Shown: positions 1 through 39,377, numbered from the stretch's first letter. The stretch is 64,000 bases of DNA from Candidatus Woesearchaeota archaeon (GCA_043817645.1 JBDRGP010000034.1:15020-79019); one strand, 5' to 3'. Notes: generated by a model from the letters alone, not told the origin. A program made the numbers and translations.

Positions 1-542
1 AAAACAGGAAAAACACTATCCCCAATCTTAGTTTGCCTTAAACTTTCTTCCAAGATAATATCCCAATTAATTTTAAATTTTTCAACCAAAGACTTGCCAT
101 CGTCTCTATCTCCTGTTCTTTCAGTAGTACATTTCATCAAAATAATATCCTCAGGACTTAAAACCTTAACAACTAACTTTCCAAATTGGTGCACTTCTTT
201 TACTCTCTCTAAAATACTTTCAGTAATTTTAATACAAACTACTTCCTTAAAAAACAAATCAAACCTAGTATTCATACCTTCCAAAAAAGTTGGATTAATT
301 TTAGGTTCGTAATCTCCTCTAATAATTCTCAGTCTTTTCTCAGTAAACCCATTTTTTTTCAATATTTTCTTAATTAATAAAAAATCTTCCTCTCTCATAA
401 GAACTAAATCAATATCCTTAGTTTCAGTTTTAGCACCCAAAAACATCATAGCACTCCCACCGATAACAAGAGCTTCTATCTTCCTCTCTAAGTCGGCCCC
501 AATCGTCTTCAATAAGTTAATCTGTTCATCAAGGGTTACCAT
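1..542 (-). CDS. AbiEii-like nucleotidyltransferase (minimal NTase fold), N-terminal part; C-terminus runs off window start
   Basis: Hand translation of minus strand from ATG (plus 540-542): MVTLDEQINLLKTIGADLERKIEALVIGGSAMMFLGAKTETKDIDLVL... The GGSA...TKDIDL segment matches the GS...D.D nucleotidyltransferase motif of AbiEii/DUF1814-type proteins. Absent from the ORF track because its stop lies outside the window. Confidence 0.5.
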   Translation of the reverse strand, partial: MVTLDEQINLLKTIGADLERKIEALVIGGSAMMFLGAKTETKDIDLVLMREEDFLLIKKILKKNGFTEKRLRIIRGDYEPKINPTFLEGMNTRFDLFFKEVVCIKITESILERVKEVHQFGKLVVKVLSPEDIILMKCTTERTGDRDDGKSLVEKFKINWDIILEESLRQTKIGDSVFPV

Positions 543-1171
543 TCTCTATACCTCATCAAATCAGCCCTATTAAAAGGTACATAAACCTCCCATAATTTTT
601 CAATATCATTAAAGTGTCCTAACTTGCCTCTCAGATTCTTTATAACGTACTTACTTTTGACCTTACTATTCAACAAAGCTTTCCTAGTTCTTAAATCCAT
701 TCTTCTTACCCTTATAAATTTCCTGGCAACATCATACAGTGCACCAACCTTTCTTCCAAGTTTATTTTTCACCGCCAAGGTTTTTAATTTACTCCAATCT
801 CTCACTTTCCCAAAAAGATCTAAACTAGCCAAAATTGTTCTGTACTCTCCAGTATTAACTGCTTCTACAATCACCTCTTCAATACTTAAGGGTCTTCCAT
901 GAACTCTATACCTTGCTCTAGTTATCAATCCAATCCTCGAATTTTTGTTTATAACCTCATATAAACCAGGATATCCAACCTCTCTCCTTTTCAAAGGATC
1001 AATAATATAGAACCTTACTTTTCTACCACCGTTATAATTCCTTAAAAACCCCTCCTTCCTTAATTTAGAAACGTAATTAATTGCAGTCCTTCTTTTAATC
1101 CCTAATTTTTTTGATATAGTGCTAACTGTCTGCATCCCCTCCAATCTTTTAGCCATATCCAAAGACTCCAT
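536..1171 (-). CDS. AbiEi-like HTH transcriptional regulator/antitoxin candidate
   Basis: 211 aa with an N-terminal HTH-like segment (TVSTISKKLGIKRRTAINYVSKLRKEGFL). It overlaps the downstream NTase gene by 7 nt. The HTH-then-NTase order on one strand is the AbiEi-AbiEii arrangement. Confidence 0.4.
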   Translation of the reverse strand: MESLDMAKRLEGMQTVSTISKKLGIKRRTAINYVSKLRKEGFLRNYNGGRKVRFYIIDPLKRREVGYPGLYEVINKNSRIGLITRARYRVHGRPLSIEEVIVEAVNTGEYRTILASLDLFGKVRDWSKLKTLAVKNKLGRKVGALYDVARKFIRVRRMDLRTRKALLNSKVKSKYVIKNLRGKLGHFNDIEKLWEVYVPFNRADLMRYREW

Positions 1172-1227
1172 TTTACATCACAAAAACTATTAATAATATA
1201 TTACCTAAAAGAACTAATATATAAACT

Positions 1228-1491
1228 TTACGCTTTATTACCTTTCTGGATACTACAAGATTCTTTAATTATCCTCTTAAACAAATCCTCCACCAACCTT
1301 GGATTCAACCCCAATTTCTTTCCAAGTTTTTTCTTTCCATCAATAATCTTTTTCTCCCTCTCAGGCTGGCATACCAAAATCTTATTCTTTTTTTTATATT
1401 CAGCCAATTTCTGAATCAAACTCATTCTCTCAGCAAGCAGAATAACAAGTTCCTTATCCAACCGATCTAAACGTTTTCTTATCTCTCTCAC
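1228..1491 (-). CDS. chorismate mutase (AroQ class) domain protein, stand-alone
   Basis: 87 aa: MREIRKRLDRLDKELVILLAERMSLIQKLAEYKKKNKIL..QPEREKKII...LGLNPRLVEDLFKRIIKESCSIQ fits the AroQ helical chorismate-mutase pattern (R..ID.ID..L..LL.eR..l...i...K; dp.RE; ..f..i...s...Q). Confidence 0.65.
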   Translation of the reverse strand: MREIRKRLDRLDKELVILLAERMSLIQKLAEYKKKNKILVCQPEREKKIIDGKKKLGKKLGLNPRLVEDLFKRIIKESCSIQKGNKA

Positions 1492-1862
1492 TTTTCAAAT
1501 CTCAACTCAAACCATTCCACTTTCCCGCTCTCAATCAATCTCTTGACCTGTTTCTGCTTCTCATTCAAACCACTTTTCCCAGTCTTAACTTCAATAAATT
1601 TCACAGAGTCATCATCAAAACTAATAAAATCAATAGGATTCCCTAAAAAAACAGTATTTTCTTTCTCACCAGGATAATCTTCCATAAAAGGAACAAAACT
1701 TTCAAAATGTTTACCATGCTTAACATTCATACTCTTATAATCAAATTTCAGTCTTTCATGCCCTTCCTTCAACTCAAAAACCTTCCTCCTCAGTCTAGAA
1801 TAAAGATAAATAAAAATAATTAAAAGAATAATTAAAACCAATACGAAATAACCCAAAGCCAT
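1488..1862 (-). CDS. membrane-anchored PD-(D/E)xK nuclease, Hjc (Holliday-junction resolvase)-like
   Basis: 124 aa. N-terminal TM helix (ALGYFVLVLIILLIIFIYL), then D (GNPIDFISF), E-x-K (FIEVKTGKS) and Q (NEKQKQVKRL) in the order of Hjc/restriction-endonuclease-fold enzymes. Its stop overlaps the chorismate-mutase start (ATGA). Confidence 0.45.
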   Translation of the reverse strand: MALGYFVLVLIILLIIFIYLYSRLRRKVFELKEGHERLKFDYKSMNVKHGKHFESFVPFMEDYPGEKENTVFLGNPIDFISFDDDSVKFIEVKTGKSGLNEKQKQVKRLIESGKVEWFELRFEK

Positions 1863-1986
1863 TATTTAACAAAATCCAACAAGACCGCAAAACCAATTCT
1901 TCAAACTATAAAAAACACCGGGCGCAAAATAATACAACAAAACTAAAATAACAACTATTAAAATAATCCACGTTGTTATTTTCATT

Positions 1987-2985
1987 TTAAGAAACTTTCT
2001 CCACCTCTTTTACCAGTTCATCAGGATTAACGTCTATAACCCTCTGAACCATCATCTCATTTCTATCAAAGAACTCATTCCTTATAACCCTTCCTACTAA
2101 AATCAATTGCCTTCCCAAAAGCCCATCTCTAATTTTATTAAATTCTTCTAAATTATCCCTAGCCTTCAAAAGTTCATCTTTATTTAAATTCAATAAACTC
2201 TCAGCATGATTCCTAAAAGCCACAGCCCGAATATTCTCGCTACCATCATCAATAAAAACATTCACAATAGGAACTAACTCTTGCTCAACCTTGCCATGCT
2301 CCTTACAAGAAGCACTATCACCAACAGCCTCTAATTTCTTACCACATCTAGGACAGGCCTCATAAAATCTAGGTTCAAACACTTGAACTATAGTCCCAAC
2401 AACACCAACCCCAACATCACCCATTTGCAATTCGCTAATTTTTTTCTTTTCAAAATCATAACTCCTCTCATTCTTAACCTCGACCTCAACACCACTAGGA
2501 TTAAGTTCCAATTCGGCCCTATTACCCAAATGAACTTCTTTATACGCATTATTGCTTTTCACATAAGCATTAGTTATTTTCAAAATAGTATCTTCCTTAA
2601 TTTTTCCATCTTCAACATCCTTAATATGGTTAGTATCCCAAAAAACAACTCTGACAACCCCAGTATCATCCCCAAACAAAATACTCACAACCTTCCCTTC
2701 CCTATCATTTTTTTTAAAATTAACAACATCATTAACTTGAACAACTTTTCCCAGTAAAGAAACACCATTCATCCCTGTTAAAAGTCTATTAATTTTTACT
2801 TCCTTAGAAACATCTAGAATCTTAACTCCAAGCTCATTAGCCACTATATGCGCAGCACCCTCCTTGCTTATCAAATCGCTCAATTGCACTAATTTCTCTT
2901 TAATCTTTAACTGAATTTCTTCTTCAGAAAGCTGTTTTTCCTCTTGTATTCTAGAGATTATCTCTTTATAACTCAAATTAAACAT
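1987..2985 (-). CDS. replication protein A (RPA)-like ssDNA-binding protein with OB folds and Zn-ribbon
   Basis: 332 aa with OB-fold-like segments and a CPRCGKK...C..H Zn-ribbon (ACPRCGKKLEAVGDSASCKEHG), as in archaeal RPA/RFA. Confidence 0.7.
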   Translation of the reverse strand: MFNLSYKEIISRIQEEKQLSEEEIQLKIKEKLVQLSDLISKEGAAHIVANELGVKILDVSKEVKINRLLTGMNGVSLLGKVVQVNDVVNFKKNDREGKVVSILFGDDTGVVRVVFWDTNHIKDVEDGKIKEDTILKITNAYVKSNNAYKEVHLGNRAELELNPSGVEVEVKNERSYDFEKKKISELQMGDVGVGVVGTIVQVFEPRFYEACPRCGKKLEAVGDSASCKEHGKVEQELVPIVNVFIDDGSENIRAVAFRNHAESLLNLNKDELLKARDNLEEFNKIRDGLLGRQLILVGRVIRNEFFDRNEMMVQRVIDVNPDELVKEVEKVS

Positions 2986-3110
2986 AACATCAATAAAAAT
3001 TTAATCGCTTTAAAAACATTATTATCTTTTAGTCTTCATGTACCAAAAACCTCTTTGATTTCTCTTAGTTTAAAGCAAAAATTCCAGTAACCACTCCAAA
3101 ATCAAGAACT

Positions 3111-3530
3111 CTAAAGTAGCTTTCTTATAACATCAATATACTCCTCAATCAAAACAATCAGTTTTTGTATATCTTTTTCATCTGATTCAACTTCTTCAAA
3201 ACCATAAAAAATCTCATGCCTTTCAAGCCTTAGCATATTCAGTTCGTTTAAAAATTTTGGTTCTATCTTATCAGAATATTTCTCTCGGATGTATACATAC
3301 AGGGCATAATGACTTTTTTCTTTAAATCCATCTCTAAACAACAAAGCCCTAGAAGAATGAAACATTGATGAATACAAATTAACACTAGCCATATCCAAAA
3401 CCTTTAAATTTATCAGTTTCTTGGCCTTTTCTAATTTTATTTCAGATATCTTTATAGACTTTCTTGCTTTTTCCAAACTAGGACTATCTTTCTTTAATAA
3501 CCCTCCCTCTATACATTCCTTAATATCCAT
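3111..3530 (-). CDS. HEPN-domain protein (partner of adjacent MNT nucleotidyltransferase)
   Basis: 139 aa all-helical small protein with an R..H-type motif (NMLRLERHEIFYG). It lies 1 nt downstream of an MNT gene, the usual HEPN/MNT pairing. Confidence 0.45.
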   Translation of the reverse strand: MDIKECIEGGLLKKDSPSLEKARKSIKISEIKLEKAKKLINLKVLDMASVNLYSSMFHSSRALLFRDGFKEKSHYALYVYIREKYSDKIEPKFLNELNMLRLERHEIFYGFEEVESDEKDIQKLIVLIEEYIDVIRKLL

Positions 3531-3531
3531 C

Positions 3532-4077
3532 TCACATCACAATAGGTTTTTCCCCATAAAGAGAAATACAATTTAAGATGACATCATAATAAAAAGCCTT
3601 ATCCTTCTCAGCTTTTTCTTTCCATTCCTTATAGCTATAATTAATTACTGTTAATTCTCTTTTAAGTTTTTTTTCACTTCTTATATCAAGTATCCTAATT
3701 TTATTTTTTGAAATTATGAGCATGTCTATATCGCTATTTTTATCATCATTCCCCCTTGCAACAGATCCATAGAGTATAATACTCAGAATACTTGAATTCT
3801 TTGATACAACTTCTTCCACAAATCCGCTAGAATTTATTTCAGATAATGAATAAAGGATTTTCATAATTCTCGTAAGAAAACCATCCTTAACTTTAAAAAG
3901 ATGACTTCGCCCAACATTTCTTTTTTTCAAAATACCTTGGGATAGCAAAAAATCTAAGGCTCCCTTCGCAGTGCTTGGCCCAACATTTGCCTTTCTAGCT
4001 ACATCTCTTATGCTATACTCCTCATTTTCTCTAATTATTGTTTTAACAACCTTCATCAAAGCATATTTGTTTATCAT
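3532..4077 (-). CDS. HTH + minimal nucleotidyltransferase (MNT) domain protein
   Basis: 181 aa with an N-terminal HTH-like region and the NTase signature ILYGSVARGNDDKNSDIDMLII (GS...D.D). Confidence 0.6.
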   Translation of the reverse strand: MINKYALMKVVKTIIRENEEYSIRDVARKANVGPSTAKGALDFLLSQGILKKRNVGRSHLFKVKDGFLTRIMKILYSLSEINSSGFVEEVVSKNSSILSIILYGSVARGNDDKNSDIDMLIISKNKIRILDIRSEKKLKRELTVINYSYKEWKEKAEKDKAFYYDVILNCISLYGEKPIVM

Positions 4078-4161
4078 GCAATATATAGAACATATGTCCT
4101 TTATAAAATTTTCTAAAAGAGATTGTCCTATAAATAGAACATATAGTCCCTATAAAAAACA

Positions 4162-4890
4162 TTATCCGCCAAATAATTCACCAGTTTTTCTAATTTTAAA
4201 CTTGATTACAGGCTCAACATAACCCAAATCCTTAGTAACCCCTTCAAAATCAAGAAAATCACCTTCTTCTCTACAACTCACTTTAAAACCCTCAAACAAA
4301 TCCTCATTCAAAAGACATTTTTTATCCTTTCCCCATTCAGAATATCTTTTATAAAGTCCATCAAAAACCTTCAGATCGAGATCTATCTCATAAGTATAAT
4401 TTAAGGTCTTATTATAAAAAATTCTTGGCACCAAACCCTCCTTCAGACTATCTACATTAGTAATTTGCTCTGGATAATAAACATTAATCAAAAGAGTATC
4501 ATCTTTTTCAATTATACCCACTTCATGTTTTCCTCTCAATTTAGGCCTCTTTTCAACTTCAAACACAAAATCTTTAGACATCTCCTTTTTAAGATTCTCA
4601 ATTAATCTATCATAAGGATTAAAATCCCACACACCATTCTCGGTTTCTAAAACTCCACCCTTGTTTAAAAACCCATCAAATCTTTTCAAAGTTTCAAACT
4701 TAATTCTCTGCTCAAAATAAAACACAGATTCCTCCATAAGTATATCTTCAAAAATCAAATCTTGACTTAACTTACCAACAGCTCTTGCTTTCGCATCAGT
4801 TACGACCTCATCTTTAACAACTAATGCAAATAAAACTATTCCTAATAACGCCAAAGCTAACATAGGCACAATAATTCCTCTCTTGTTCAT
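4162..4890 (-). CDS. pilin-like protein with class III (type IV prepilin-like) signal peptide
   Basis: N-terminus MNKRG|IIVPMLALALLGIVLFALVV: basic residues, then Gly, then about 20 hydrophobic residues. Last gene of the pilus operon; overlaps the upstream gene by 4 nt. Confidence 0.45.
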   Translation of the reverse strand: MNKRGIIVPMLALALLGIVLFALVVKDEVVTDAKARAVGKLSQDLIFEDILMEESVFYFEQRIKFETLKRFDGFLNKGGVLETENGVWDFNPYDRLIENLKKEMSKDFVFEVEKRPKLRGKHEVGIIEKDDTLLINVYYPEQITNVDSLKEGLVPRIFYNKTLNYTYEIDLDLKVFDGLYKRYSEWGKDKKCLLNEDLFEGFKVSCREEGDFLDFEGVTKDLGYVEPVIKFKIRKTGELFGG

Positions 4891-5399
4891 TCTGGTCTTC
4901 CCTCCAAAATCTTTAAAGTCACCGTTATGTCCTTTGCATTAGGTGAAGGAATAATCATCGCGCCCATATTTTTTCCTAAATTCTTTGGATCCAAAACATC
5001 AAATGCCTTAAAAGTTCCTTCTTCATATACTCCAACCCAGCCTGGTTTTGTAAACTCAATAGAAGGACTTCTCTCTTTCCTGTAGTAAAAAGAATAATAA
5101 AAATCAGAATCTTCAAAAAGACTATGAATTTCATTTTCTAACCTCTCAAAACTTTCCGGATCATCAAAACTCAAACTTACCAAATCACCAATATTAAGAT
5201 TCTTATCAACAGGTGTTTTTAATAAAGAAAGCAGCATATAGTCCAAAGAAACCTCACTCTCACTCTGAAGCACGCCCTTACCACCACTCTTAAACGCATC
5301 CATATTTAGCGCAACAAGAACAAGAACTATAATCACAACAATCAGAATAATAGAGGCGATAGCCATCAATCCAAATCCTAAAAACCCCTTTTTACCCAT
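4887..5399 (-). CDS. pilin-like protein with class III signal peptide
   Basis: N-terminus MGKKG|FLGFGLMAIASIILIVVIIVLVLVAL. Overlaps neighbours on both sides. Confidence 0.45.
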   Translation of the reverse strand: MGKKGFLGFGLMAIASIILIVVIIVLVLVALNMDAFKSGGKGVLQSESEVSLDYMLLSLLKTPVDKNLNIGDLVSLSFDDPESFERLENEIHSLFEDSDFYYSFYYRKERSPSIEFTKPGWVGVYEEGTFKAFDVLDPKNLGKNMGAMIIPSPNAKDITVTLKILEGRPE

Positions 5400-5805
5400 T
5401 CTTAATTAACACCTCAATCTTAACTAAGTTTCTTTCTAAAAAATAATGCCCCCCGCTACAAGCATAATTAAAATCACAAAAATCTCTATTAAAAGCGAAT
5501 TCTTCATTCTCAAAAAGCATTTTTTCACCAGAACTTATCTTAATACCGAATTTGTCCAAATCGAAACAATTCTTAAAGTTTATGACAGAAAAATCATAAA
5601 AAGAATTTTTTTCTAAACATTTTTGAGCATTAACAATAGCATACTCTAATTTAGCATCTTCAGTATTAATCTCAAAAACCATAATCTTGCTTATTACAAG
5701 CAGTATAATCAAAGAAAAAATCACTAAAAAAATAATTCTATAAATCCAAGTAATCTGCTCCTTAGCATGCGTAAACAACCCACCCTTCTTATTCATTTTT
5801 CTCAA
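5392..5805 (-). CDS. pilin-like protein with class III-like signal peptide
   Basis: N-terminus MRKMNKKGG|LFTHAKEQITWIYRIIFLVIFSLIILLVISKI, with several Cys in the mature part. The hydrophobic segment is less canonical than in the neighbours. Confidence 0.35.
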   Translation of the reverse strand: MRKMNKKGGLFTHAKEQITWIYRIIFLVIFSLIILLVISKIMVFEINTEDAKLEYAIVNAQKCLEKNSFYDFSVINFKNCFDLDKFGIKISSGEKMLFENEEFAFNRDFCDFNYACSGGHYFLERNLVKIEVLIKNG

Positions 5806-6127
5806 TTCTCAAATCCTTACCTCTTCTAAAAACCTTAAGATCAGAATCAAAAGAATTTATCTCTTTAACAACACCTTTTCTTGATATAAAAACAACATCT
5901 CCAGCCTTTTTTACATCATATTCATCATCAATAGCATAAACAACAGTAATATTTCCTTCCAGATTATTTAAAGCACTAAACAAAAAATAAAGATCCTCTT
6001 GCACAACCTTATTTTCTAACGCACTTCCATCTCTAAAAGAATCAATCCAAGCATAAGTTCCATAAATAATAACAGCAGCAATCAACAAATACATAACCCA
6101 ATACCCTAGAACATCAGTATCTGCCAT
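5789..6127 (-). CDS. pilus-operon membrane protein (single N-terminal TM, no KRG motif)
   Basis: MADTDVLGYWVMYLLIAAVIIYGTYAW... hydrophobic N-terminus. Sits inside the operon with gene overlaps. Confidence 0.3.
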   Translation of the reverse strand: MADTDVLGYWVMYLLIAAVIIYGTYAWIDSFRDGSALENKVVQEDLYFLFSALNNLEGNITVVYAIDDEYDVKKAGDVVFISRKGVVKEINSFDSDLKVFRRGKDLRIEKNE

Positions 6128-6130
6128 ATC

Positions 6131-6952
6131 TTAACCCTCTCCAAAACAAGGAAGCTCCGCACAAATACCAAGATCATTACCTTTTTTTTCAAGGTATACA
6201 AAACCAGCAGCAACCTGTTCTCTAGGACCTATATCCCATGGCCAAAAACCCTGTTCTTTTTTAGGAACAAATATACCTTTATAATTCATAATCGGGGTAT
6301 CCTCCTCAATATCAAAATAATCCCCATAAGCTCCAACTAAAAAGAACCCTTCTTGAAAACTCATTAAAAAAGAATAACGAATATCTTGTTCATACCAAAG
6401 CTGGCTTTTTTCAAGAGTAAATCCGTGCTTATCTTCATTTATAAATTTATTAACATATAAGGGCTTACAAGAAAGAACCTTCTCGCAACCAAATTCAAAA
6501 ACAGTATTAACTTCATCTCCAGCATCTATATCTGGTCTAGAATAAGATATCAAACTGAGTCTTGAACACATACAAGCACACGACCTATCTTCAGAACATC
6601 CAGCACCAATCGGTTTATGTGCATAAATATAAGCATCATGTTCTTTGGATCCATCAGCAAACCCCACAATCTTATCATATCCTTTATCAAAAAACAAGAA
6701 AGTTACACCCTCTTCTAAAAAAATATCAGATTGATCAAATGTCCTCTCCCTATCTCTAAGCAACCCATCAATAACCCCTAAAAATCTATCTAACTGAGTA
6801 ACATACTTATCTTCATCGATTTTATCCTCAGTCTCCAAAAGCCCGAGCAGATCAAAAGTCTTATCAAACAAAACAAGAACCACCAAAGCACTAATCACTA
6901 TTACTCCTACAATCATAATCATAGACCCAGAAGTACCTCTTTTTCCAATCAT
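6131..6952 (-). CDS. pilin-like protein with class III signal peptide, Cys-rich mature domain
   Basis: MIGKRG|TSGSMIMIVGVIVISALVVLVLF; mature region contains GAGCSEDRSCACMCSRL and further Cys. Confidence 0.45.
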   Translation of the reverse strand: MIGKRGTSGSMIMIVGVIVISALVVLVLFDKTFDLLGLLETEDKIDEDKYVTQLDRFLGVIDGLLRDRERTFDQSDIFLEEGVTFLFFDKGYDKIVGFADGSKEHDAYIYAHKPIGAGCSEDRSCACMCSRLSLISYSRPDIDAGDEVNTVFEFGCEKVLSCKPLYVNKFINEDKHGFTLEKSQLWYEQDIRYSFLMSFQEGFFLVGAYGDYFDIEEDTPIMNYKGIFVPKKEQGFWPWDIGPREQVAAGFVYLEKKGNDLGICAELPCFGEG

Positions 6953-7008
6953 AAAAATAAAAAAGAATTAAGAAATATATAAATTAGTTGGTTTGTTTAC
7001 ACTAATTC

Positions 7009-7413
7009 TTAAGCGTTTTTCTTCCACGTCTCCTGTCCTTCCACTGCATTAGTACAAGCTCCATAAGAACAACCAACACTTATAGGAGTGTCCTTACAAT
7101 AATAATCATTAGGCACGCCATCCATCTCCTCAGCGTTTCCATCTCCATCAATATCCAATCTAAACGGAGTATCACAATATGCAGTTCTCTGACCTGTTGG
7201 AACACCAGCCGCAGCCTCACACCTCTGTTCACATATTTCTCTAGCCAAACTTAAATCAGTTCCAGCAGTTGCACCAAAAAATACACTCCTAATGCTCTTA
7301 CTTAAGTTACTTGTACCACCTAAAAAGAAAAATGCAACAACAAGCAAAACAATTACAACCAGAACAATTATAATTAAAGTATTTATAGGCATTCCTTGAC
7401 CTTTTTTATTCAT
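7009..7413 (-). CDS. pilin-like protein with class III signal peptide, Cys-rich
   Basis: MNKKGQG|MPINTLIIIVLVVIVLLVVAFFFLGG, followed by 8 Cys (CEQRCEAAAG..YCDTP..YYCKD..GCSYGAC). Confidence 0.5.
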   Translation of the reverse strand: MNKKGQGMPINTLIIIVLVVIVLLVVAFFFLGGTSNLSKSIRSVFFGATAGTDLSLAREICEQRCEAAAGVPTGQRTAYCDTPFRLDIDGDGNAEEMDGVPNDYYCKDTPISVGCSYGACTNAVEGQETWKKNA

Positions 7414-7467
7414 TAAGCATCACCTTCTTTTTGATTATTTTATATAAATATCCAACATATATAAAGC

Positions 7468-9090
7468 TTACTGTGTTTGCACCATAGCATTTACTATAGC
7501 CATAGAATCTGGTTTATACAGTCCCCGGGTTACTGCCAAACTAAAAACAACTTCAGTAGAGGTAGGATCTCCTTCGCCCTGCACAGCCTCTGCATGTATT
7601 TTATAAAAAACAATGTTGGCAGGAAAACTATCAAGAGAACCACAAAGATCGTCTTTCCTATATCTGAGTTTCGCATCTTCTTCACTAGAAAAACCACCGT
7701 GCACACTCAAGATATAATCACCATCAGGAGCACCACAAATAACATTCCCAGCGAAATCCCGAATCCTATAATTCAATTGGAATCCCTCCTCTAACTCAAG
7801 ATAGTCCAAATTATTCCATTCTTCAGGGTTCTCCTTAATATACCCTCCAGAATCACTACCAGTTATACCATTCGCAACCGGACTTTTGGTGTCATCAGTT
7901 TTAATTTCTAAAAGATATCGAATTTCCCCTGGATATAGCTCTACATCACCAGTATAAGTCCACTTATAGTCATCACCTAACAGTTTAGTCGAATCAAAAC
8001 GCCCTACAAATTCATACTCAAAAATCATCTTAGAAAACTTAATTCTCCTAGAATATCCAGGATCTCGAGTATACACTTCTTTCAATTTAGCAGCAGCAAC
8101 ACCACCAACATCCAATCCCAAAACCAAAACATCTTCATACAAATTTAAAGCCTCGTTCTCCCTTCCTAATTTTTGCAAACTCTCTGCTGCACCCAAGTAA
8201 TATTCGGCCTTATCTTCTTCATCTTGCAATAAGTTTAATATTTGTTTATACTTTATCAAAAGTTGATCATACTGACCAGTTCTTTTAAATTCTACAATTT
8301 CACACTTAACACCATCAAAAATACTAAACTTAGTTCTAGCCAAGTTCTCGCATTCAGGCCATAAAATATGATATCTCCTAAGTTCTAACTCAAAATTATC
8401 CTTATCAATCTTCTGTCCCACCGCTAAAAGTCTAGAATCAATGTCTATAGAGGGCGCCTTTTTTTCTTGAGCCTCTTGATAAAATTTCTGTGCATCCCCA
8501 TATCTCTTCTCATCCATAGCTTTATCTCCAGCTTCAATCAATCTCCTCCATTCCCCCTCCAAAGCCACCTCTGCATGTTTTTCTCTTTCTTCTTTTGCTT
8601 TCATCAAATATCCGTATACATCTCTCCTCGTTTTTTCATCACACTTTTCTCTTAATCCATTATACTCTTCTTCCTTTAGCTTAGTTTTTCCAGAACGATA
8701 TTTTGTATTATAATCACTTAAACTCAAACCGGGTTTTAAGACCCCTTCTTCAACACCACCACAAATATCTAAATAATGCTCAAACTCCTTCTGAGCTAAA
8801 TCATATTTACTTTCACCCATAAGATCGTTTCCTCTACTAATCAAGCTATTAAGATACCCACCAGGATCACTCCTGATAAACTCCAAATCCTCCTCTTCTT
8901 TCGGAGTAAATAAACCAAAAAAATTCTTAAACTTTTCAACTCCAGATTTGCTTTCTTCAGTCACAGTTTTAATAGTTCCTCCTTCAGCTTCATTAGCGCC
9001 ACGATAAAGGAATACAACAACAATAATTACAGCTACAACTCCAACTAATAAACTAAAAAGATTATTCCAATGAAATTCTCCTCTTTTCAT
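7468..9090 (-). CDS. large pilin-like/pilus-associated protein (class III-like N-terminus, helical-repeat middle, beta-rich C-terminus)
   Basis: MKRG|EFHWNNLFSLLVGVVAVIIVVVFLY; 540 aa with a TPR-like helical region (YGDAQKFYQEAQEK, AEYYLGAAESLQKLGRENEALNLYEDVL). Confidence 0.4.
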   Translation of the reverse strand: MKRGEFHWNNLFSLLVGVVAVIIVVVFLYRGANEAEGGTIKTVTEESKSGVEKFKNFFGLFTPKEEEDLEFIRSDPGGYLNSLISRGNDLMGESKYDLAQKEFEHYLDICGGVEEGVLKPGLSLSDYNTKYRSGKTKLKEEEYNGLREKCDEKTRRDVYGYLMKAKEEREKHAEVALEGEWRRLIEAGDKAMDEKRYGDAQKFYQEAQEKKAPSIDIDSRLLAVGQKIDKDNFELELRRYHILWPECENLARTKFSIFDGVKCEIVEFKRTGQYDQLLIKYKQILNLLQDEEDKAEYYLGAAESLQKLGRENEALNLYEDVLVLGLDVGGVAAAKLKEVYTRDPGYSRRIKFSKMIFEYEFVGRFDSTKLLGDDYKWTYTGDVELYPGEIRYLLEIKTDDTKSPVANGITGSDSGGYIKENPEEWNNLDYLELEEGFQLNYRIRDFAGNVICGAPDGDYILSVHGGFSSEEDAKLRYRKDDLCGSLDSFPANIVFYKIHAEAVQGEGDPTSTEVVFSLAVTRGLYKPDSMAIVNAMVQTQ

Positions 9091-9093
9091 ATC

Positions 9094-9261
9094 TTAACCA
9101 AATCCTAAGAAATTTATAAAAGTATCTATCAAATCAAACACTATCTCCATAACAGATGAAAAACCCATTAAAGCCATGGCCCCCACTAAAACAACTACAA
9201 CTACAACTAATATGAGAGTTAACACCTTAGTTATAGCTATTTCGCCTTTATTCCCTATCAT
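9094..9261 (-). CDS. unannotated mini-pilin (55 aa) with class III signal peptide
   Basis: Hand translation: MIGNKG|EIAITKVLTLILVVVVVVLVGAMALMGFSSVMEIVFDLIDTFINFLGFG. Not in the ORF track (under 60 aa). Stop is 3 nt from the next start. Confidence 0.4.
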   Translation of the reverse strand: MIGNKGEIAITKVLTLILVVVVVVLVGAMALMGFSSVMEIVFDLIDTFINFLGFG

Positions 9262-9401
9262 CTTAAAGTAAATTTATCTAAAAACCCCACACCTTTTTGA
9301 GTTAAAGCCATTATTATCAAAACCACAATTATCACTATCACTAAAAATATCAAAAGCTCTCCAATTATTTTTAATTCTAAACCTTTTTTATTCAAAGTCA
9401 T
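9258..9401 (-). CDS. unannotated mini-pilin (47 aa) with class III signal peptide
   Basis: Hand translation: MTLNKKG|LELKIIGELLIFLVIVIIVVLIIMALTQKGVGFLDKFTLR. Its stop TGA overlaps the ATG of the 55-aa ORF (ATGA). Confidence 0.4.
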   Translation of the reverse strand: MTLNKKGLELKIIGELLIFLVIVIIVVLIIMALTQKGVGFLDKFTLR

Positions 9402-10263
9402 CACACCTCTGTAAAATTTCTATAGCTCTCTCTGAGCCAGAAGCAATAAGCAAAGCAGGATAAAACTCAGTAGCGCGTGCACCAAGAGCATAAACATCCC
9501 ATCCTACCAAAGCAATCCCAACAGGCCCAAGCAATTTTGTACTAGCTTTCGTCCCAAGCGCAGTGGCCACTTTTCTAGCAGCCACCCCATAACCAACTCT
9601 GCCAGCAGCGCCCCCTGCAGCAGCCGCAGGCGCCTCTAGCTGGCCAACATCACCACCAAGTAACTCTTTCCAAAACTCACTTTTCTTATTAGCCACAAAG
9701 AGCACATAAAAATTATTTTGAGTATCAATCCTAATGTTTCCATCGCCCAAATCCAACCTACTTTTTTCAACCTTAGTAAAAAATTCTGAGTAAGTTACCT
9801 TGCCAGTGGGTATCTTTTCATTATCTAAAAAATCTTGTAAATCATCCAGCGGAATCTCGCCTTCAAAACCATTACTACTATACCTCCGAATAGAACAAAT
9901 ACGACAATAAAGATCAGAACCAAACCAATCAATATCACTTAAAAAATCTATCTCCCCTTCGCCAAACTGCCACCAACAAGCGTACATATCTCTAGCAATC
10001 TCCTCCAAAACCTGTCTCTTAACTAAAGTTTCACTAGTCTCTCTTTTTGTCTCACACTTCAACTTAAATGGAGACTCCTTACCAATATAAGGTAATTTAG
10101 TACTATAATGAAGCTCAACACTTGTTCTACAAGTAGCTGGATCATATTTACCAGTACCAAAAGATTCATACCATTTAATAGCTAACAAAACAAGTGCAAC
10201 TAAAGCAACTACAGCAAGAAGCACTCCAGCAAACTCCTTCCAAGCCAGTCCTCTTTTATCCAT
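9388..10263 (-). CDS. pilin-like protein with class III-like signal peptide
   Basis: MDKRG|LAWKEFAGVLLAVVALVALVLLAI; mature part has several Cys and an Ala/Gly-rich C-terminal stretch. Confidence 0.4.
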   Translation of the reverse strand: MDKRGLAWKEFAGVLLAVVALVALVLLAIKWYESFGTGKYDPATCRTSVELHYSTKLPYIGKESPFKLKCETKRETSETLVKRQVLEEIARDMYACWWQFGEGEIDFLSDIDWFGSDLYCRICSIRRYSSNGFEGEIPLDDLQDFLDNEKIPTGKVTYSEFFTKVEKSRLDLGDGNIRIDTQNNFYVLFVANKKSEFWKELLGGDVGQLEAPAAAAGGAAGRVGYGVAARKVATALGTKASTKLLGPVGIALVGWDVYALGARATEFYPALLIASGSERAIEILQRCDDFE

Positions 10264-10375
10264 TCAGAGCACCTTTAAAATAGATATTATACACTAAAAA
10301 AAGAATCAAACAAATTGTAATAACAAATATTATAAAACTAACCAAACTAACACCTTGCAAACCCTTTTTCATCAT
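10256..10375 (-). CDS. unannotated mini-pilin (39 aa) with class III signal peptide
   Basis: Hand translation: MMKKG|LQGVSLVSFIIFVITICLILFLVYNIYFKGALNG. Its ATG overlaps the stop of the upstream 62-aa ORF (ATGA), and its own stop overlaps the ATG of the 291-aa pilin. Confidence 0.35.
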   Translation of the reverse strand: MMKKGLQGVSLVSFIIFVITICLILFLVYNIYFKGALNG

Positions 10376-10560
10376 CTTAATCTTGCTTTTTCCCTGCTCC
10401 TCAAATTAACAACCAAAATTATAATTCCAATAACAATTACGATCCCATTATAAACAGAACCAGAACTAATTTTACTCAAACCTTCAAAACTATCTTCAAA
10501 AAAAGGAAACAAACCAACCGCTATAACCACTAGTCCCAAAAAAACATTTAACCATTTCAT
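10372..10560 (-). CDS. small two-TM membrane protein, pilus operon
   Basis: 62 aa with two hydrophobic helices; overlaps genes on both sides. Confidence 0.3.
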   Translation of the reverse strand: MKWLNVFLGLVVIAVGLFPFFEDSFEGLSKISSGSVYNGIVIVIGIIILVVNLRSREKARLR

Positions 10561-11207
10561 TCTGTCCCCCTAATCCACTTCCATCCAAACACAACAACAA
10601 AGATAGCAGCAACCAAGGCCAGAATATTCAAAACCGACATTACAAAAAACGGACTTAAAGGCAGATAATAAAACAACCCACTCAATTGATATCCGCCTTC
10701 ACTCTGCATCCAAAACCAAAACAACAAATAAGCCAATCCAACAACAGTTCTTGTAGCATTACTTCCCTTCAAGGCTGCAAACAAGCCGATTATTATCAAC
10801 AAAATGAATATCAAACCAAGAAATCCGCCAAACAAACCTCCAAAAATATCTCCTAAACCGCAAACTAAAGAAAACCCGCTTGTAGCTTCCCACCTAACAA
10901 TACCTATAGCCAAAGCAAAAGCAATAACCACTGCCAGAATATCACTTTTACTTCTAGCAGGACCCTTAAAAGCCCAATGACCAAAAACAAAAAACACTAC
11001 AAATAAAACAAAGAATTCAAACCATTCAGCATAATTATCACATAAATTTGAAATAAATCCAAACCCAAATCCCTCGCCAGAACCAAATCCTCCACCATAA
11101 TCATATCCATAATCAAAATAATGGGTTTGTCCAAAAACAATAGGTAACAAACTAAGCAAGCTAAAAATCACTAAAAGAATCACCATCTTTTTGCTTAACA
11201 TATTCAT
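10557..11207 (-). CDS. polytopic membrane protein with Gly/aromatic-rich N-terminal segment, pilus operon
   Basis: 216 aa. Signal-like N-terminus, then YFDYGYDYGGGFGSGEGFGFGF, then at least 5 TM helices; contains a GLGDIFGG segment. Confidence 0.35.
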   Translation of the reverse strand: MNMLSKKMVILLVIFSLLSLLPIVFGQTHYFDYGYDYGGGFGSGEGFGFGFISNLCDNYAEWFEFFVLFVVFFVFGHWAFKGPARSKSDILAVVIAFALAIGIVRWEATSGFSLVCGLGDIFGGLFGGFLGLIFILLIIIGLFAALKGSNATRTVVGLAYLLFWFWMQSEGGYQLSGLFYYLPLSPFFVMSVLNILALVAAIFVVVFGWKWIRGTE

Positions 11208-11236
11208 ATTTCACCCTGCAAATTATTTAAAGCTTT

Positions 11237-13477
11237 CTACACTCCAGTACCCCTGGCAACCTGCACAACCCCTCCAGCTAAAACACTGAATATAACTATA
11301 CTAATCAAAGCAATCAAAAAATACAATCCAACAGCTATAAACAAATTCCTACCTATAACATACCTATGAGTTACTCTATCAATCCCATTTTCTATACCAC
11401 TACTTAAAATACTCAAAATGATAACAACCTCAACAACAAACAGCCCAACAACAATTTGAAATTGATAACCGGGGATAATATCAGTAATAGTCAAAATTTT
11501 AGTGATATTCTCAAAACCGCCAAATCCTGCCGCTGCAGCACCTTCTTGATCTCCCATCTCGCTCAAAATCAAAGTCAAATTGTTAATAATAGAAATCATC
11601 ATACTAGTCACACCAACTACGATACCAGCAATCATCGGAGTCAAAAAAGTAATTTGCCCTTTCATACTACTCAAAATATCAGCCAACAAATCTTTCAATC
11701 TCTCTGTAATACTCCTAACTCTATTAACATAATCAGAAATTGTTATCAAACTTTTAGCAACTATTTGAGGTCCTTTCTTAGCACTCTCAACTAAAACCTT
11801 CATACTACTTTTTATCAGATTGCTAGGAAAATAAACTATGGACCCTCTGTGTGAATCAAAAATAGCATCCTTAACACTCATCCCCATTTTTCTAATATTT
11901 GCATCAGTCATTCTTAAGAAATCGCCACTTGGAGTTCCCTGAACATTTTCAGCCACACTACTAATCGCTCTCTCAACAGGCAACCCATCACCTACCCTAT
12001 TACCTAACTGAAAAATAGCACCAGAAAACTCTCTTTCCATATCAGAAGTTCTTTTACGAATCCTAATCAACTGTTTACTCCAAATATAATAATAAGTCCC
12101 AATACCCAAAGCAATCCCTAAAGGAATAAACAAACTCAAGATCATACTAAAAACACTATAAGGGCCAATACAAGTTTCATCACACTTATAATCTAACAAC
12201 TTGCTCTCAAGAATACTTCCTTCAAACAAAGTATAATCAAAACCTTGAGGAGTAGCATAAAACAGAAGCAAGGGTATCAATCCAATTATAACTAATATTC
12301 CCCCAATAAAAAGAGCAAACATCCCAGGACTAAATCCCATCCCGCCAACCTTCATTTTAGTAAACTCTTCAAACTCAGGATGCTCTTTCAGAATATCTTC
12401 ACTTCCGTACCCAGTAGGTCTTTTCTCGAGTAAATTCATTCCATAAAAATAAACAAAAACAGGCAAAAATAAATTATACAAAAGAGCTAAATGCCACCAC
12501 TTAACCAAACCTTCTAAAAATCCGCTCATCAAAGGAAAAACAACCAGCCCCAAAACAGGCAAGATCACACCCAACATATAAACCATAGTAATAGGGCTTC
12601 TCAAATCATGAGCATAATGCAACATCTTTTCATAAGTCCCATTCAAGATAACTTCCAAAGCCTTCTCTAATTGGCCTATTCTTCTTTCGTCACTAGGCTC
12701 ATACAAACTCCCTTCAATCAAATGCATACTTTCAACAAACTCTAAACTATGGTCCTTCCACCCAACTAAATAAGAATCTAAACTTTCTTTAATACTCATA
12801 AACTTACCATTCTCCACATCCCAAAGAATTTTCCTCAAATCCAAAGCTAAAGGAGCGCCAACATGCTCTCCAGCAAATTTAATAGCATGCTCCAAATTGC
12901 TTGTATGTCTCATATACATAACCATATACAAAATACAAAGCACCATTTGGTTACTTGCCCTTAAACGCCATCTCGCAGCAATCCTCAAAGGATACTTAGA
13001 TAAAAGCCCCATCAACAAAGCACCAAACAACACAATAATCAACGGAATAAAGACTACACCCAAGCTAACACTTTTCAATCCGCCTTCAGGACTAAAAAAC
13101 CCAACAGCGTCTCCACTAAAAAGATACATCCCAACCCCAGAAAATACCCCAAGCAAAACAATCAAAAACACCAAAATAGCAGCAAAACTAGTTGCTCCTT
13201 CAACAGTCATATCCAAATGTGCAATATCAATTGCTCCCTGTATCTTTTCTCTATCTTTCTCTTTTGGTTTAACTCTTAAAGTCCTCTCAGCAAATCTGCA
13301 TAACTTCTCATATCTGGAAACATATCTCTCTAAATTTTCTCTTCTAAAAATCTCATACTCCTGAGAAAAAGAATCTCCTGGAAAGTGCTCCATCTCATCA
13401 AGTTCTATACTTCTACCCAACCTTTTCTCAGCCTTTCCCAAGATTTCCTTAATTTCCTCACCAGTAATTCTTCTCAT
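11237..13477 (-). CDS. TadC/PilC/FlaJ-family membrane platform protein of type IV pilus/archaellum-like systems
   Basis: 746 aa polytopic membrane protein immediately downstream of the secretion ATPase. Two large cytoplasmic helical domains are each followed by TM clusters, as in T2SS-F proteins. Confidence 0.6.
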   Translation of the reverse strand: MRRITGEEIKEILGKAEKRLGRSIELDEMEHFPGDSFSQEYEIFRRENLERYVSRYEKLCRFAERTLRVKPKEKDREKIQGAIDIAHLDMTVEGATSFAAILVFLIVLLGVFSGVGMYLFSGDAVGFFSPEGGLKSVSLGVVFIPLIIVLFGALLMGLLSKYPLRIAARWRLRASNQMVLCILYMVMYMRHTSNLEHAIKFAGEHVGAPLALDLRKILWDVENGKFMSIKESLDSYLVGWKDHSLEFVESMHLIEGSLYEPSDERRIGQLEKALEVILNGTYEKMLHYAHDLRSPITMVYMLGVILPVLGLVVFPLMSGFLEGLVKWWHLALLYNLFLPVFVYFYGMNLLEKRPTGYGSEDILKEHPEFEEFTKMKVGGMGFSPGMFALFIGGILVIIGLIPLLLFYATPQGFDYTLFEGSILESKLLDYKCDETCIGPYSVFSMILSLFIPLGIALGIGTYYYIWSKQLIRIRKRTSDMEREFSGAIFQLGNRVGDGLPVERAISSVAENVQGTPSGDFLRMTDANIRKMGMSVKDAIFDSHRGSIVYFPSNLIKSSMKVLVESAKKGPQIVAKSLITISDYVNRVRSITERLKDLLADILSSMKGQITFLTPMIAGIVVGVTSMMISIINNLTLILSEMGDQEGAAAAGFGGFENITKILTITDIIPGYQFQIVVGLFVVEVVIILSILSSGIENGIDRVTHRYVIGRNLFIAVGLYFLIALISIVIFSVLAGGVVQVARGTGV

Positions 13478-13653
13478 CTTTTTTTCCTATCCCTTTTTCT
13501 TTTTCCGCCAACGCTTTTTCCAAAAGGGTTGTTTAAATAGTATTCAATCAAGTATAGAACCAAATCACTCTCAGATTGTCTTTTAACAAAATCCAATTCT
13601 AAGAGTTTTTTCTTAACCTCTTTTTTAATTCGTATAGAAGTATCTTCAGACAT
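13474..13653 (-). CDS. unannotated 59-aa ribbon-helix-helix-like protein, translationally coupled to platform gene
   Basis: Hand translation: MSEDTSIRIKKEVKKKLLELDFVKRQSESDLVLYLIEYYLNNPFGKSVGGKRKRDRKKR. Beta-strand plus two helices resembles RHH (CopG/Arc). Its stop TGA overlaps the platform ATG (ATGA). Confidence 0.4.
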   Translation of the reverse strand: MSEDTSIRIKKEVKKKLLELDFVKRQSESDLVLYLIEYYLNNPFGKSVGGKRKRDRKKR

Positions 13654-13728
13654 AAAAAAACATTTAATCTTTAATTATATAAATGTATGCATAGTATACC
13701 ATGTATGAGGTGTATGCAGAAAGATAAC

Positions 13729-15999
13729 TCAACCCAATCTCTTCTTCTTAATTTCTCTTTTAACCCAAGTATCCCACTCAAAAAAGATTCTTTTATGATC
13801 CAAGTGACCAATCTCTTCTTTTAATTCATCAGAAACCCTATGAAACTCATCATTCGCAGAGATCACAAAAGGAGCCTCAAGTAGATCCAACATCTTAGCT
13901 TTATTCGCATAATCAACAATAGCCTTTTTCATCTTAGCTCTTACTTGTATATTCTCCCAAATAGCATCCCAATCGCCCACAAATTCTCTAACATTCCCAG
14001 CAATTCTTTTCAAAGTTTCACTATCACCATTAATCAATTCATCAGTTGGCACTAATAGATCCTTCTTAGCATCATACTTCATCAAATCAACAAAACCATG
14101 TTCTCTTAAAGGATCATCTTCCCAATGTTTCCTTACCTCCGTAATACTCCTCACTCTTCTAAGGCTATGTAAACCATCAGCACTCTTAACAGGATTTGTA
14201 ATAACAATTATATCGGTAGCCTTAAAACTAGTCCTTGGAACTCCCAAATCATTCACAACCCTATCAAAAACACCATAAGGAGAATCAGCATGCAAAGTAC
14301 CAGCAACAACATTAGCCATAGCACCAATTCTCATAGCTTCATAGAGTGCTTTTGCTTCGATGCTCCTAATTTCACCCACAATCAAAGCACTATCCCCCAT
14401 TCTTAAACTTGTTCTAATACCTTCATCCGCAGCAATCTCAGTACCACCAGTAGTTAAAGCACTCCTAACTTTCATCTGTTGTATATTATAACCTAAATCT
14501 CTTAAAGCGCCCGTGGGTAATTCCAAAGTGTCCTCCAGGGTAATCACTCTATATCGTCTCATAATCTCAACTAAAAAACTCCCCAAAACTGAAGTTTTTC
14601 CAGAACTTCTAGTCCCAGCAACTAATAAAGTTCTAGCACCATCAATCAAAAAACTCATCAAACCAGCACCAAGAGGATCAATCATTTTATTATTAATAAA
14701 CAAAGGCAATGTCCAAGGTTTATCTCTATGTCTCCTTAAAGAAAAAGCCAACCCATGCGGATTCAACGGATTTGAAATAATAGCAACTCTTGCTCTAACT
14801 CCAGGAATCTCAAGCTCAGTATCCAAAATAGGATTAGCCTCGTCCAAGGGCCTTGCACTTAATAATCTAAACTTAGATGCCCATCCTTCAGAATCCTCAA
14901 TACTCGGAACAATATTAGTAACACAGTCACCATAATCGGCATGAACAATAAAAATAGGATTTTTACCAACAGGACTGTTTACAGAAATGTCTTGCACTTT
15001 AGGATCCTGTAACAGAATCTCAACCATCCCAAATCCAATAGTATACCTAACAAGTATTTTCGCTAATTTTCTAATCCTTCCAATATCAAGATCATAACCC
15101 TTATGCTCGGCCAGTTCCATCAACAAATCTCTCCCAATATTCAAAAAAGTCCTTCTCATTCTATCCGGCTCTAAAAACTCTTCTTCCTTAGGTCTATGCT
15201 CAGCTAAAACAGTTCTTGCTAAATCAATTAGTTCATACTCATCCTCTGTAACTTTTAATTCTGGAGGAACAACATGATACATTAACTTAATATCATCCTT
15301 TAATTTCAGTAGAGTCACCGTATTATCAAAAACAGCATAACTGTCAACAAATTCTGCATCCAAAGGAATAGTGCTCATCAACTGAGTATACATAAAATCA
15401 GGGCTAACTACTGGCCTAAAAACTTCAACATAGAGCCCCCTATCTCCAATTCTATGTCCTGCAAGTCTATTCTTCACTCTCTTAATCAAACTCGTATTCT
15501 CTAAATTATTTTTAATATACTGCAAAACATCAATATACCTTCTCTCATCTTCTGCTTGAGCAGGATCACCAATATCCTCAACCCTAATGTTCCCTTCTCG
15601 GATTAATCTTTTTAATTCAACATAAGCACCAACCGGATCACTTCTTAACAAATTATAAATAACATATTGGATAGTTGCATACTTATTAGATACATCAGTA
15701 CCATAACCCAGCTGACTCAAACTAAGTAATCTTTTCTGCTTAGTTAAATTACTAAAAACAGTAGCAACCTCAACCAACAAGGCAGTTTGATCTCTAGAAT
15801 AATTAAAGTTTCTTTTCTGGTTCAAAATAATCCTGGCAACAGAAGGCATTTCAGCCAAATAACCAATAACCCTAACCATCACTAAAGGATTTCCTTCAAT
15901 ACTGGGAGAATACGGCCATGTATTTGCATCAATCTTAAGAACCTCTTCTCCACCCTCTAATACAATCCCATATCCACTCCCTTTTTTAGAAACTGCCAT
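13729..15999 (-). CDS. type II/IV secretion family ATPase (PilB/FlaI/VirB11-like) for type IV pilus assembly
   Basis: 756 aa; Walker A GTRSSGKTSVLGSFLVE, then VITLEDTLELP and the C-terminal region typical of GspE/FlaI hexameric ATPases. Confidence 0.8.
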   Translation of the reverse strand: MAVSKKGSGYGIVLEGGEEVLKIDANTWPYSPSIEGNPLVMVRVIGYLAEMPSVARIILNQKRNFNYSRDQTALLVEVATVFSNLTKQKRLLSLSQLGYGTDVSNKYATIQYVIYNLLRSDPVGAYVELKRLIREGNIRVEDIGDPAQAEDERRYIDVLQYIKNNLENTSLIKRVKNRLAGHRIGDRGLYVEVFRPVVSPDFMYTQLMSTIPLDAEFVDSYAVFDNTVTLLKLKDDIKLMYHVVPPELKVTEDEYELIDLARTVLAEHRPKEEEFLEPDRMRRTFLNIGRDLLMELAEHKGYDLDIGRIRKLAKILVRYTIGFGMVEILLQDPKVQDISVNSPVGKNPIFIVHADYGDCVTNIVPSIEDSEGWASKFRLLSARPLDEANPILDTELEIPGVRARVAIISNPLNPHGLAFSLRRHRDKPWTLPLFINNKMIDPLGAGLMSFLIDGARTLLVAGTRSSGKTSVLGSFLVEIMRRYRVITLEDTLELPTGALRDLGYNIQQMKVRSALTTGGTEIAADEGIRTSLRMGDSALIVGEIRSIEAKALYEAMRIGAMANVVAGTLHADSPYGVFDRVVNDLGVPRTSFKATDIIVITNPVKSADGLHSLRRVRSITEVRKHWEDDPLREHGFVDLMKYDAKKDLLVPTDELINGDSETLKRIAGNVREFVGDWDAIWENIQVRAKMKKAIVDYANKAKMLDLLEAPFVISANDEFHRVSDELKEEIGHLDHKRIFFEWDTWVKREIKKKRLG

Positions 16000-38068: not shown

Positions 38069-38103
38069 CACATTTTTATAAACAAAAATATTAAAAAACA
38101 ACA

Positions 38104-39299: not shown

Positions 39300-39377
39300 T
39301 CAAGAAATTTGGTATATAAAGGTTACCCTAGCCAAAAACCATTTTACCTAAATTTTTTATGCAATCCTTAAAAAGGA

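Follow-up and report, generated by a model that had tools for sequence, protein, structure and literature searches.

The locus described here raises the question of whether a membrane-anchored nuclease gene and the chorismate mutase (CM) gene directly behind it form a functional pair, or whether they are neighbors by accident. Both genes lie in the first 4 kb of a 64-kb stretch of DNA (the window; positions are counted along it) from a metagenome-assembled genome of Woesearchaeota, a DPANN group, with a G+C content of about 32-36%. An earlier note on this DNA had proposed that the couple may be a novel toxin or abortive-infection module. The analysis gives another answer, and we hold it with good confidence as one joint reading. 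The region is a conserved woesearchaeal backbone with three independently acquired accessory pieces and not one system, and the adjacency of nuclease and CM is an accident of insertion or deletion that does not mark a functional couple. The accessory pieces would be a winged helix-turn-helix (wHTH) minimal nucleotidyltransferase (MNT) with its HEPN partner, a 211-aa wHTH protein with a DUF6036 nucleotidyltransferase (NTase), and the 87-aa AroQ CM. Every component is of a known kind.

The nuclease stop codon and the GTG start of the CM gene overlap by 4 nt (GTGA) in the same orientation, and the earlier description of a stop that overlaps the start of an 87-aa AroQ CM is thus accurate. The pair of the source contig is also present in two independent assemblies (L006 and L007; loci are designated by L numbers). 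Nuclease loci were gathered by exact-protein look-ups, a scan of GTDB genomes and a scan of IMG/VR, and CM loci by look-ups and a metagenome scan. The six-frame open reading frames (ORFs) of every locus were compared with hidden Markov models (HMMs) made from the nuclease and CM alignments. The nuclease locus scan used alignment A2, as the 49 nuclease sequences of alignment A1 proved too divergent for this purpose. CM was found in none of 105 other nuclease loci (25 cellular and 80 viral, source contig excluded), even at E<=1, and the nuclease in none of 21 other CM loci. No CM relatives were found in IMG/VR viral contigs. In PADLOC the CM has no match and the nuclease has marginal matches only.

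The nearest relative, Nanoarchaeota H51-bin130_1 (L012, L052 and L053), has a nuclease 75% identical to that of the window. Its gene order is RPA, a 39-aa ORF, the nuclease, an HTH gene (211 aa) and an NTase gene (227 aa), and CM is absent. At the CM site H51-bin130_1 reads GAGAAGTG joined directly to AAAAAAGCGTAAAGTTTATATATT (shown longer, GAGAAGTG joined to AAAAAAGCGTAAAGTTTATATATTAGTTCTT), and between the GTG and AAAGCGTAA the window has 249 more bases, in frame, which make up the body of the CM ORF. Past this indel the window and L053, L052 and L012 share 28 nt without a difference, AAAGCGTAAAGTTTATATATTAGTTCTT. The CM of the window is shorter than its homologs at both ends, which fits an insertion in the window lineage, and a relic GTG-AAA-AAA-GCG-TAA in H51-bin130_1 fits a deletion there. 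A role of CM as antitoxin of the nuclease is untenable, because the nuclease of H51-bin130_1 is intact, and presumably functional, with the CM precisely missing. By the condition that the earlier note itself had set for its refutation, the notion of a co-conserved module thus fails against the sampled loci of both genes, and it fails against the nearest relative.

The CM protein matches CM_2 (PF01817) over the whole profile (positions 1-80 of 80; 82 bits versus a cutoff of 27, E 3.7e-23). Domain calls here and below were made with Pfam, PADLOC and NCBIfam profiles and their curated cutoffs. PDB sequence matches are the M. jannaschii CM (2gtv), PchB and the E. coli CM (1ecm). Scores for the curated NCBIfam CM subfamilies are all below cutoff, the closest being TIGR01803 (61 versus 73.35). 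R5, R22, K33, Q42 and E46 are invariant in the CM alignment (9/9 sequences). In the register of 1ecm, residues 4-82 correspond to residues 10-88 of the chain, an offset of 6. The active site of the E. coli enzyme (EcCM, 1ECM) we take to be formed by Arg11', Arg28, Lys39, Asp48, Glu52, Ser84 and Gln88, and R5, R22, K33, E46, S78 and Q82 of the CM are the equivalents of EcCM catalytic residues. Judged by sequence, the 87-aa protein most likely converts chorismate to prephenate.

The neighborhood of CM homologs (43-64% identical, plus one weaker match at 36%) is ordinary synteny of the phenylalanine/tyrosine branch. Prephenate dehydrogenase (PDH) or prephenate dehydratase (PDT) adjoins CM in 10 of 15 metagenome loci, the neighbor in five loci being a fusion of PDH_N, PDH_C, PDT and ACT; in an archaeal context (L008/L009) the CM gene overlaps the prephenate dehydrogenase gene by 4 nt. 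In related DPANN genomes and in those resembling the candidate phyla radiation (CPR), CM would act with the adjacent dehydrogenase or with the dehydrogenase-dehydratase fusion. In the window the CM gene would fit exactly into the space that separates the stop of the nuclease from the HTH-gene promoter, presumably the TATA-like element AAAGTTTATATATT. It would have no promoter of its own and probably relies for its expression on translational coupling (GTGA) to the nuclease transcript. A literature search on chorismate mutase in DPANN or CPR found nothing that bears on this case.

The CM homolog followed by the fused PDH-PDT-ACT protein is seen on low-GC metagenome contigs (L038, L039, L042, L043 and L045; about 5270-6990 in L039). 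Two of these contigs look bacterial, L045 with sigma-70 and DnaG and L039 with Ddl and UvrC. On both, the two-gene CM cassette stands amid unrelated housekeeping genes, and the flanks hold no other shikimate genes.

The nuclease is a member of COG4741/PF10107 and differs from it in nothing essential. It scores 60.1 bits against PF10107 (cutoff 23.8, E 3e-16), and the domain is present in all 67 of its homologs (67/67), most of them from DPANN archaea. Residues of about 4-22 are hydrophobic and are followed by RLRRK, a feature that is conserved in the alignment, and the AlphaFold2 (AF2) model (mean predicted local distance difference test, pLDDT, 84.7) has a long N-terminal helix (residues 2-45) and a small alpha/beta core. 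Across 38 homologs E54, P76, D78, E91, K93 and Q103 do not vary, the middle four being part of P76-I-D78 and E91-V-K93. The architecture is an N-terminal transmembrane helix, a helical linker and a predicted minimal PD-(D/E)xK core, in agreement with the membrane-anchored nuclease with a D...EVK...Q motif that had been read from the sequence before (D78, E91, K93, Q103). The family was described in 2005 as mostly archaeal and uncharacterised, with a transmembrane helix and a minimal PD-(D/E)xK core predicted to face the cytosol (PMC1189080). Its motif is E-(V/I)D-E(V/I)K (PMC1189080; PMC3424549, 2012). The nuclease thus has a described counterpart in this family; the earlier note had seen no obvious one for the nuclease-CM couple. 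PDB sequence and profile searches with the nuclease gave no match, and PHROGs has no family for it, viral homologs included.

Four related lineages (L001/L015, L012/L052/L053, L013/L014 and L016) have homologous ORFs of 33-39 aa immediately before the nuclease gene, at 5882-5998 in L001, 1860-1976 in L012, 2372-2488 in L013 and 4062-4160 in L016. The micro-ORF product is hydrophobic and has a Cys-containing tail (…F/LCGL..C); in the window this ORF was absent from the gene list of the earlier note. It might serve as the partner of the nuclease in the membrane. In one of these lineages (L001, 6727-8820; also L015) the genes that come after the nuclease encode a LAGLIDADG homing endonuclease, a conserved 92-aa protein and RadA, and the 92-aa protein follows the nuclease in L016 too.

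In more distant DPANN loci the nuclease adjoins dCMP deaminase, NrdR, ribonucleotide reductase (RNR) and dUTPase (L003, 6001-10343) or stands between dihydroorotate dehydrogenase and NrdR with class II RNR (L022, 4820-10854). Full-length relatives, including the transmembrane helix, are present on at least 82 IMG/VR contigs, many of them marine, and the viral nuclease loci (L054-L133) have the RNR large subunit in 67/80 cases and the small subunit in 62/80. The order in L054 is DnaB-like helicase, NrdF, NrdA, nuclease, thioredoxin, one unannotated ORF and QueC. In the isolated Flavobacterium phage vB_FspM_immuto (L134, NC_055915.1, 6895-10513; gp009-gp012) NrdF, NrdA, the PF10107 endonuclease and an EndoG-like nuclease are consecutive. 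RNR, NrdR, dUTPase and dCMP deaminase were not found in the 64-kb window. A role of the nuclease in DNA metabolism or nucleotide salvage is proposed because its relatives sit with RPA or RadA or in clusters for RNR and deoxynucleoside triphosphates, and this points to a housekeeping or salvage enzyme, not a toxin. The enzyme would cleave DNA close to the membrane and feed recombination or nucleotide salvage. As a tentative extension, the 39-aa micro-protein and the PF10107 nuclease could possibly form an uncharacterised DNA-degrading nucleotide-salvage device of host-dependent DPANN archaea and marine phages. Such a device would supply deoxynucleotide precursors at the membrane, and in phages would do so from between NrdA and thioredoxin or beside an EndoG-like nuclease. 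By its link with RNR clusters COG4741, for 20 years an orphan family, gains a testable functional lead, the most useful one to come from this locus.

The nuclease belongs to a series of genes that is shared with relatives. In the four related lineages a 242-aa gene comes first, then RPA, the 39-aa micro-ORF and the nuclease, at times with the gene of a 134-aa membrane protein placed after RPA; in one of these lineages RadA follows the nuclease. With phmmer the 242-aa gene was matched in L001, L012-L016 and L052, where it ends 7-33 nt before the RPA ORF. MNT and HEPN genes are absent at this position in all four lineages. The RPA gene, noted before as standing between the pairs, is confirmed by Pfam Rep_fac-A_C above cutoff; the NCBIfam replication factor A match (7e-44; 150 versus 442 bits) is under the curated cutoff. 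The 242-aa gene, RPA, micro-protein and nuclease would thus constitute a backbone inherited vertically in Woesearchaeota.

The wHTH-MNT protein matches PF01909 (NTP_transf_2, 1.7e-10) and Polbeta (4e-10) and has the motif GSx10DxD. It also matches the PADLOC candidate PDC-M05A (3.6e-19), and its score against the MntA equivalog (NCBIfam NF047752) is 28.3 bits versus a cutoff of 60 (E 1.3e-06). One nt separates its gene from that of the HEPN protein, which matches PF05168 (2.7e-10) over profile positions 2-116 of 117. The HTH-MNT (GS..D.D) and HEPN genes form a putative toxin-antitoxin-like module, as had been suggested. On the downstream side of HEPN the final ~95 bp of the 242-aa gene recur in decayed form, and the original intergenic region comes next. 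The duplicate was aligned with L052, over the stretch that leads from the 242-aa gene terminus up to RPA, and scored 63.5 versus 42.0 +/- 4.7 in 300 shuffles. Positions 3086-3108 and 4234-4256 form a direct repeat (D10) with 23-nt copies of 91% identity at a distance of 1148 nt. The repeats that turned up at 1-5200 of the window enclose the MNT-HEPN cassette only. The cassette is a lineage-specific insertion with target duplication: the pair went into the 242-aa gene at its 3′ end, with about 95 bp of the gene duplicated. The intact 242-aa gene has a new C-terminus (…ELFGG* versus …ELFST* in the relative).

Another accessory piece is the HTH gene with the NTase gene. The end of the former overlaps the start of the latter by 7 nt (ATGGTAA). 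The full NTase has 230 aa on L006 (11321-12013). Its part in the window matches Pfam DUF6036 (1e-09) and DUF2204 (5e-08) and shows the motifs GGSA (residues 28-31) and TKDIDL (residues 41-46). Its family is abundant in DPANN archaea (224 matches). Among 50 members DUF6036 is found in 50/50, DUF2204 in 42/50 and a weak AbiEii match in 18/50 (best 5.1e-07), and the window NTase has no match to DUF1814/AbiEii (PF08843) at E<=1. G28-G-S, K42-D43-x-D45, D95, K137, R142, D145 and D148 show no variation or hardly any. Searches of the PDB by sequence and by profile gave no match. The best PDB match of the AF2 model (pLDDT 90.7) is MenT1 (8an5_B, E 4.6e-07; TM-score 0.58 normalised by query and 0.70 by target), followed by JHP933 (E 9e-05) and TM1012. 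MenT1-4 belong to the DUF1814/AbiE-like toxins and modify the acceptor stems of tRNAs (PMC7450476, PMC10435456). Because the modeled fold is of the MenT/AbiEii type, the NTase is most likely a nucleotidyltransferase toxin, and its target, like that of MenT, would probably be the 3′ end of tRNA.

For the partner there is no match to AbiEi, COG5340 or MenA, and Pfam, PADLOC and NCBIfam return a generic wHTH only. The family profile finds MarR structures only in the PDB, for residues 15-90, and the C-terminal domain is without a match. The family has 98 representative clusters, mostly of 190-225 aa plus shorter fragments. In L047-L053 NTase homologs are immediately preceded by a gene of 209-217 aa, with an overlap or a gap of at most 17 nt. 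Outside this locus the pair recurs in three genomic contexts, one of them the complete genome AR20 (CP010426.1); it would move between contexts as a unit. The HTH protein would restrain the NTase and probably autoregulates the operon. The earlier reading of an HTH protein overlapping an NTase with GGSA...TKDIDL stands as a putative toxin-antitoxin-like pair. As to the name AbiEi/AbiEii, the architecture and the MenT1/AbiEii-like model fold agree with it, and strict membership by sequence does not (no PF08843, no COG5340). A literature search on DUF6036/DUF2204 found nothing bearing on the case.

Other explanations of the locus have to be weighed against an accident of gene order. The nuclease and the CM-fold protein could be a new two-gene toxin/immunity or abortive-infection module, with CM as antitoxin, inhibitor or small-molecule sensor. 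Overlap and co-orientation, the toxin-antitoxin-like pairs on either side and the presence of the pair in L006 and L007 speak for such a module, yet neither gene accompanies the other in the remaining 105 and 21 loci, and the nearest relative keeps the nuclease with the CM cleanly gone, which would be lethal were CM its antitoxin. The active-site residues of the enzyme are kept, its homologs are paired with PDH/PDT, PADLOC gives no more than marginal nuclease matches, and the nuclease family is syntenic with housekeeping genes. We regard the module as extremely improbable, and give only the faintest chance to a recruitment of CM as partner of the nuclease in this single lineage. CM as an inhibitor of the nuclease, by analogy with NucA/Nin, was also considered and was rejected on account of the clean CM-less relative and the intact enzyme active site. 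It is unlikely, too, that the CM gene is a decaying, non-functional remnant of a lost phenylalanine/tyrosine branch with no present role. The lack of PDH/PDT in the 64 kb, the shortened ORF ends, the scores under the NCBIfam subfamily cutoffs and a nearest relative that lost or never gained CM are compatible with decay; the intact ORF with its full-length CM_2 match, the six retained catalytic equivalents (R5, R22, K33, E46, S78 and Q82) and the identical copies in independent assemblies speak against it.

The whole 4 kb could also be one integrated mobile defense island that brought RPA, nuclease and CM along. Two toxin-antitoxin-like pairs within 4 kb and an insertion scar beside MNT-HEPN speak for such an island, but four related lineages without MNT/HEPN show the backbone synteny of the 242-aa gene, RPA, 39-aa ORF and nuclease, and the three accessory pieces differ in their spread among relatives. 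The tRNA and Rfam scans of the window gave no match, and so no tRNA-linked integration site, and the repeats bracket MNT-HEPN only (an integrase was not searched for). A single island is very improbable, and this candidate was set aside on the backbone synteny. It should be noted that several points weigh against a backbone with independent acquisitions, or against the roles given to its parts. A GTG start that overlaps the nuclease stop is also expected of a true operon partner. The sampled loci are partly redundant, several being from the same populations. Foldseek on the nuclease model was non-significant (best VRR_NUC, E 1.7; Hjc, E 8.7). The position of EcCM Asp48 is taken by Gln42, which is invariant in the clade, so that the CM activity is a predicted one, and neither PDH/PDT (tyrA/pheA) nor shikimate genes were found within the 64-kb window. 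The HEPN protein reads LRLERHEIFYG (one sequence), that is Rx3H or R-x4-Y, and not the textbook Rx4-6H. With these points considered, the conserved backbone with three separately acquired pieces is still the reading that we hold with good confidence. The result is in the main a negative one: the tempting toxin module of nuclease and metabolic enzyme is best seen as an accident of gene order and not as a defense candidate.

The features of the region are collected in the table. The seven genes of the earlier note and the motifs quoted for them were all found on the minus strand at the positions given for them.

Table. Features in positions 1-4890 of the window, all on the minus strand.
Feature	Position	Strand	Basis or remark
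NTase, DUF6036/DUF2204	<1-542	-	window edge cuts gene, 5′ 180 codons present; Pfam
211-aa protein, N-terminal MarR-like winged HTH	536-1171	-	weak Pfam HTH matches
Intergenic, A/T-rich TATA-like element AAAGTTTATATATT ahead of HTH gene	1172-1227	-	
87-aa stand-alone AroQ (type II) chorismate mutase	1228-1491	-	Pfam CM_2 3.7e-23
124-aa COG4741/PF10107 membrane-anchored PD-(D/E)xK nuclease	1488-1862	-	Pfam Endonuc_Holl 3e-16
39-aa hydrophobic micro-ORF MKITTWIILIVVILVLLYYFAPGVFYSLKNWFCGLVGFC	1866-1985	-	conserved directly upstream of nuclease
RPA, 332 aa	1987-2985	-	NCBIfam replication factor A, Pfam Rep_fac-A_C
Decayed duplicate of 242-aa gene 3′ end and original pre-RPA intergenic region	3010-3108	-	D10 and L052 alignments
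139-aa HEPN-domain protein, putative toxin of the MNT-HEPN pair	3111-3530	-	Pfam HEPN 2.7e-10
181-aa wHTH-MNT, putative antitoxin of the MNT-HEPN pair	3532-4077	-	NTP_transf_2 1.7e-10
242-aa backbone gene, unknown function	4162-4890	-	phmmer matches in relatives

The 242-aa gene is the first of five small genes (242, 170, 137, 112 and 273 aa) on the minus strand at 4162-6952, with no Pfam matches on record. The products of several of them start with a short basic stretch, K/R-G and a long hydrophobic segment in that order, which recalls the type IV pilin-like (class III) signal peptides of archaea. For at least two of the five (242 and 137 aa), relatives have a counterpart upstream of RPA. Within the window, 1-16000 and 38000-50000 show a very strong negative GC skew (-0.4 to -0.55) where genes are on the minus strand, which corresponds to a G-rich, C-poor coding strand; the skew is weaker at about 16-32 kb, where genes turn to the plus strand. 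Positions 24845-31210 of the plus strand hold one 2121-aa ORF followed by overlapping ORFs of 444 and 207 aa.

Compared with known systems, the nuclease shares with COG4741/PF10107 the N-terminal transmembrane helix, a core of about 80 residues and the E...(V/I)D...E(V/I)K motif of this mostly archaeal family. What is added here is the upstream 39-aa micro-ORF, the synteny with RPA in Woesearchaeota and the synteny with RNR clusters in phages. The CM is, like EcCM (1ECM), MjCM and PchB among the AroQ enzymes, a single helical CM_2 domain of about 85 aa, with equivalents of Arg11', Arg28, Lys39, Glu52, Ser84 and Gln88. It differs in the Gln (Q42) at the Asp48 position, invariant in the DPANN/CPR clade, in the lack of an adjacent tyrA/pheA, which is usual in clade members, and in the placement of its gene after an unrelated nuclease gene.

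The MNT-HEPN pair resembles the type VII systems (MntA/HepT; PDC-M05) in having a GSx10DxD MNT directly before HEPN, in its cassette-like insertion and in the PDC-M05A match. However the MNT carries an extra N-terminal winged HTH and matches NCBIfam MntA under cutoff, and HEPN is of the PF05168 type, not DUF86/HepT, with RLERH in place of Rx4-6H. The locus is a clean example of the insertion of an MNT-HEPN cassette with target duplication in a DPANN genome. For the HTH-NTase pair the wider meaning lies in an uncharacterised wHTH partner family for MenT/AbiEii-like NTases that is widespread in DPANN archaea. With AbiE/MenAT (DUF1814) this pair has in common two overlapping genes with the HTH partner upstream of the NTase, the GGS...DxD motifs of Pol-beta, C-terminal invariant Lys, Arg and Asp, which may correspond to motifs III/IV of DUF1814, an AF2 model with MenT1 as top match and an occurrence in varied contexts. 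It differs from AbiE/MenAT in that its NTase matches DUF6036/DUF2204 and not PF08843, in a partner without AbiEi, COG5340 or MenA match whose C-terminal domain is of no known family, and in a host range of DPANN archaea.

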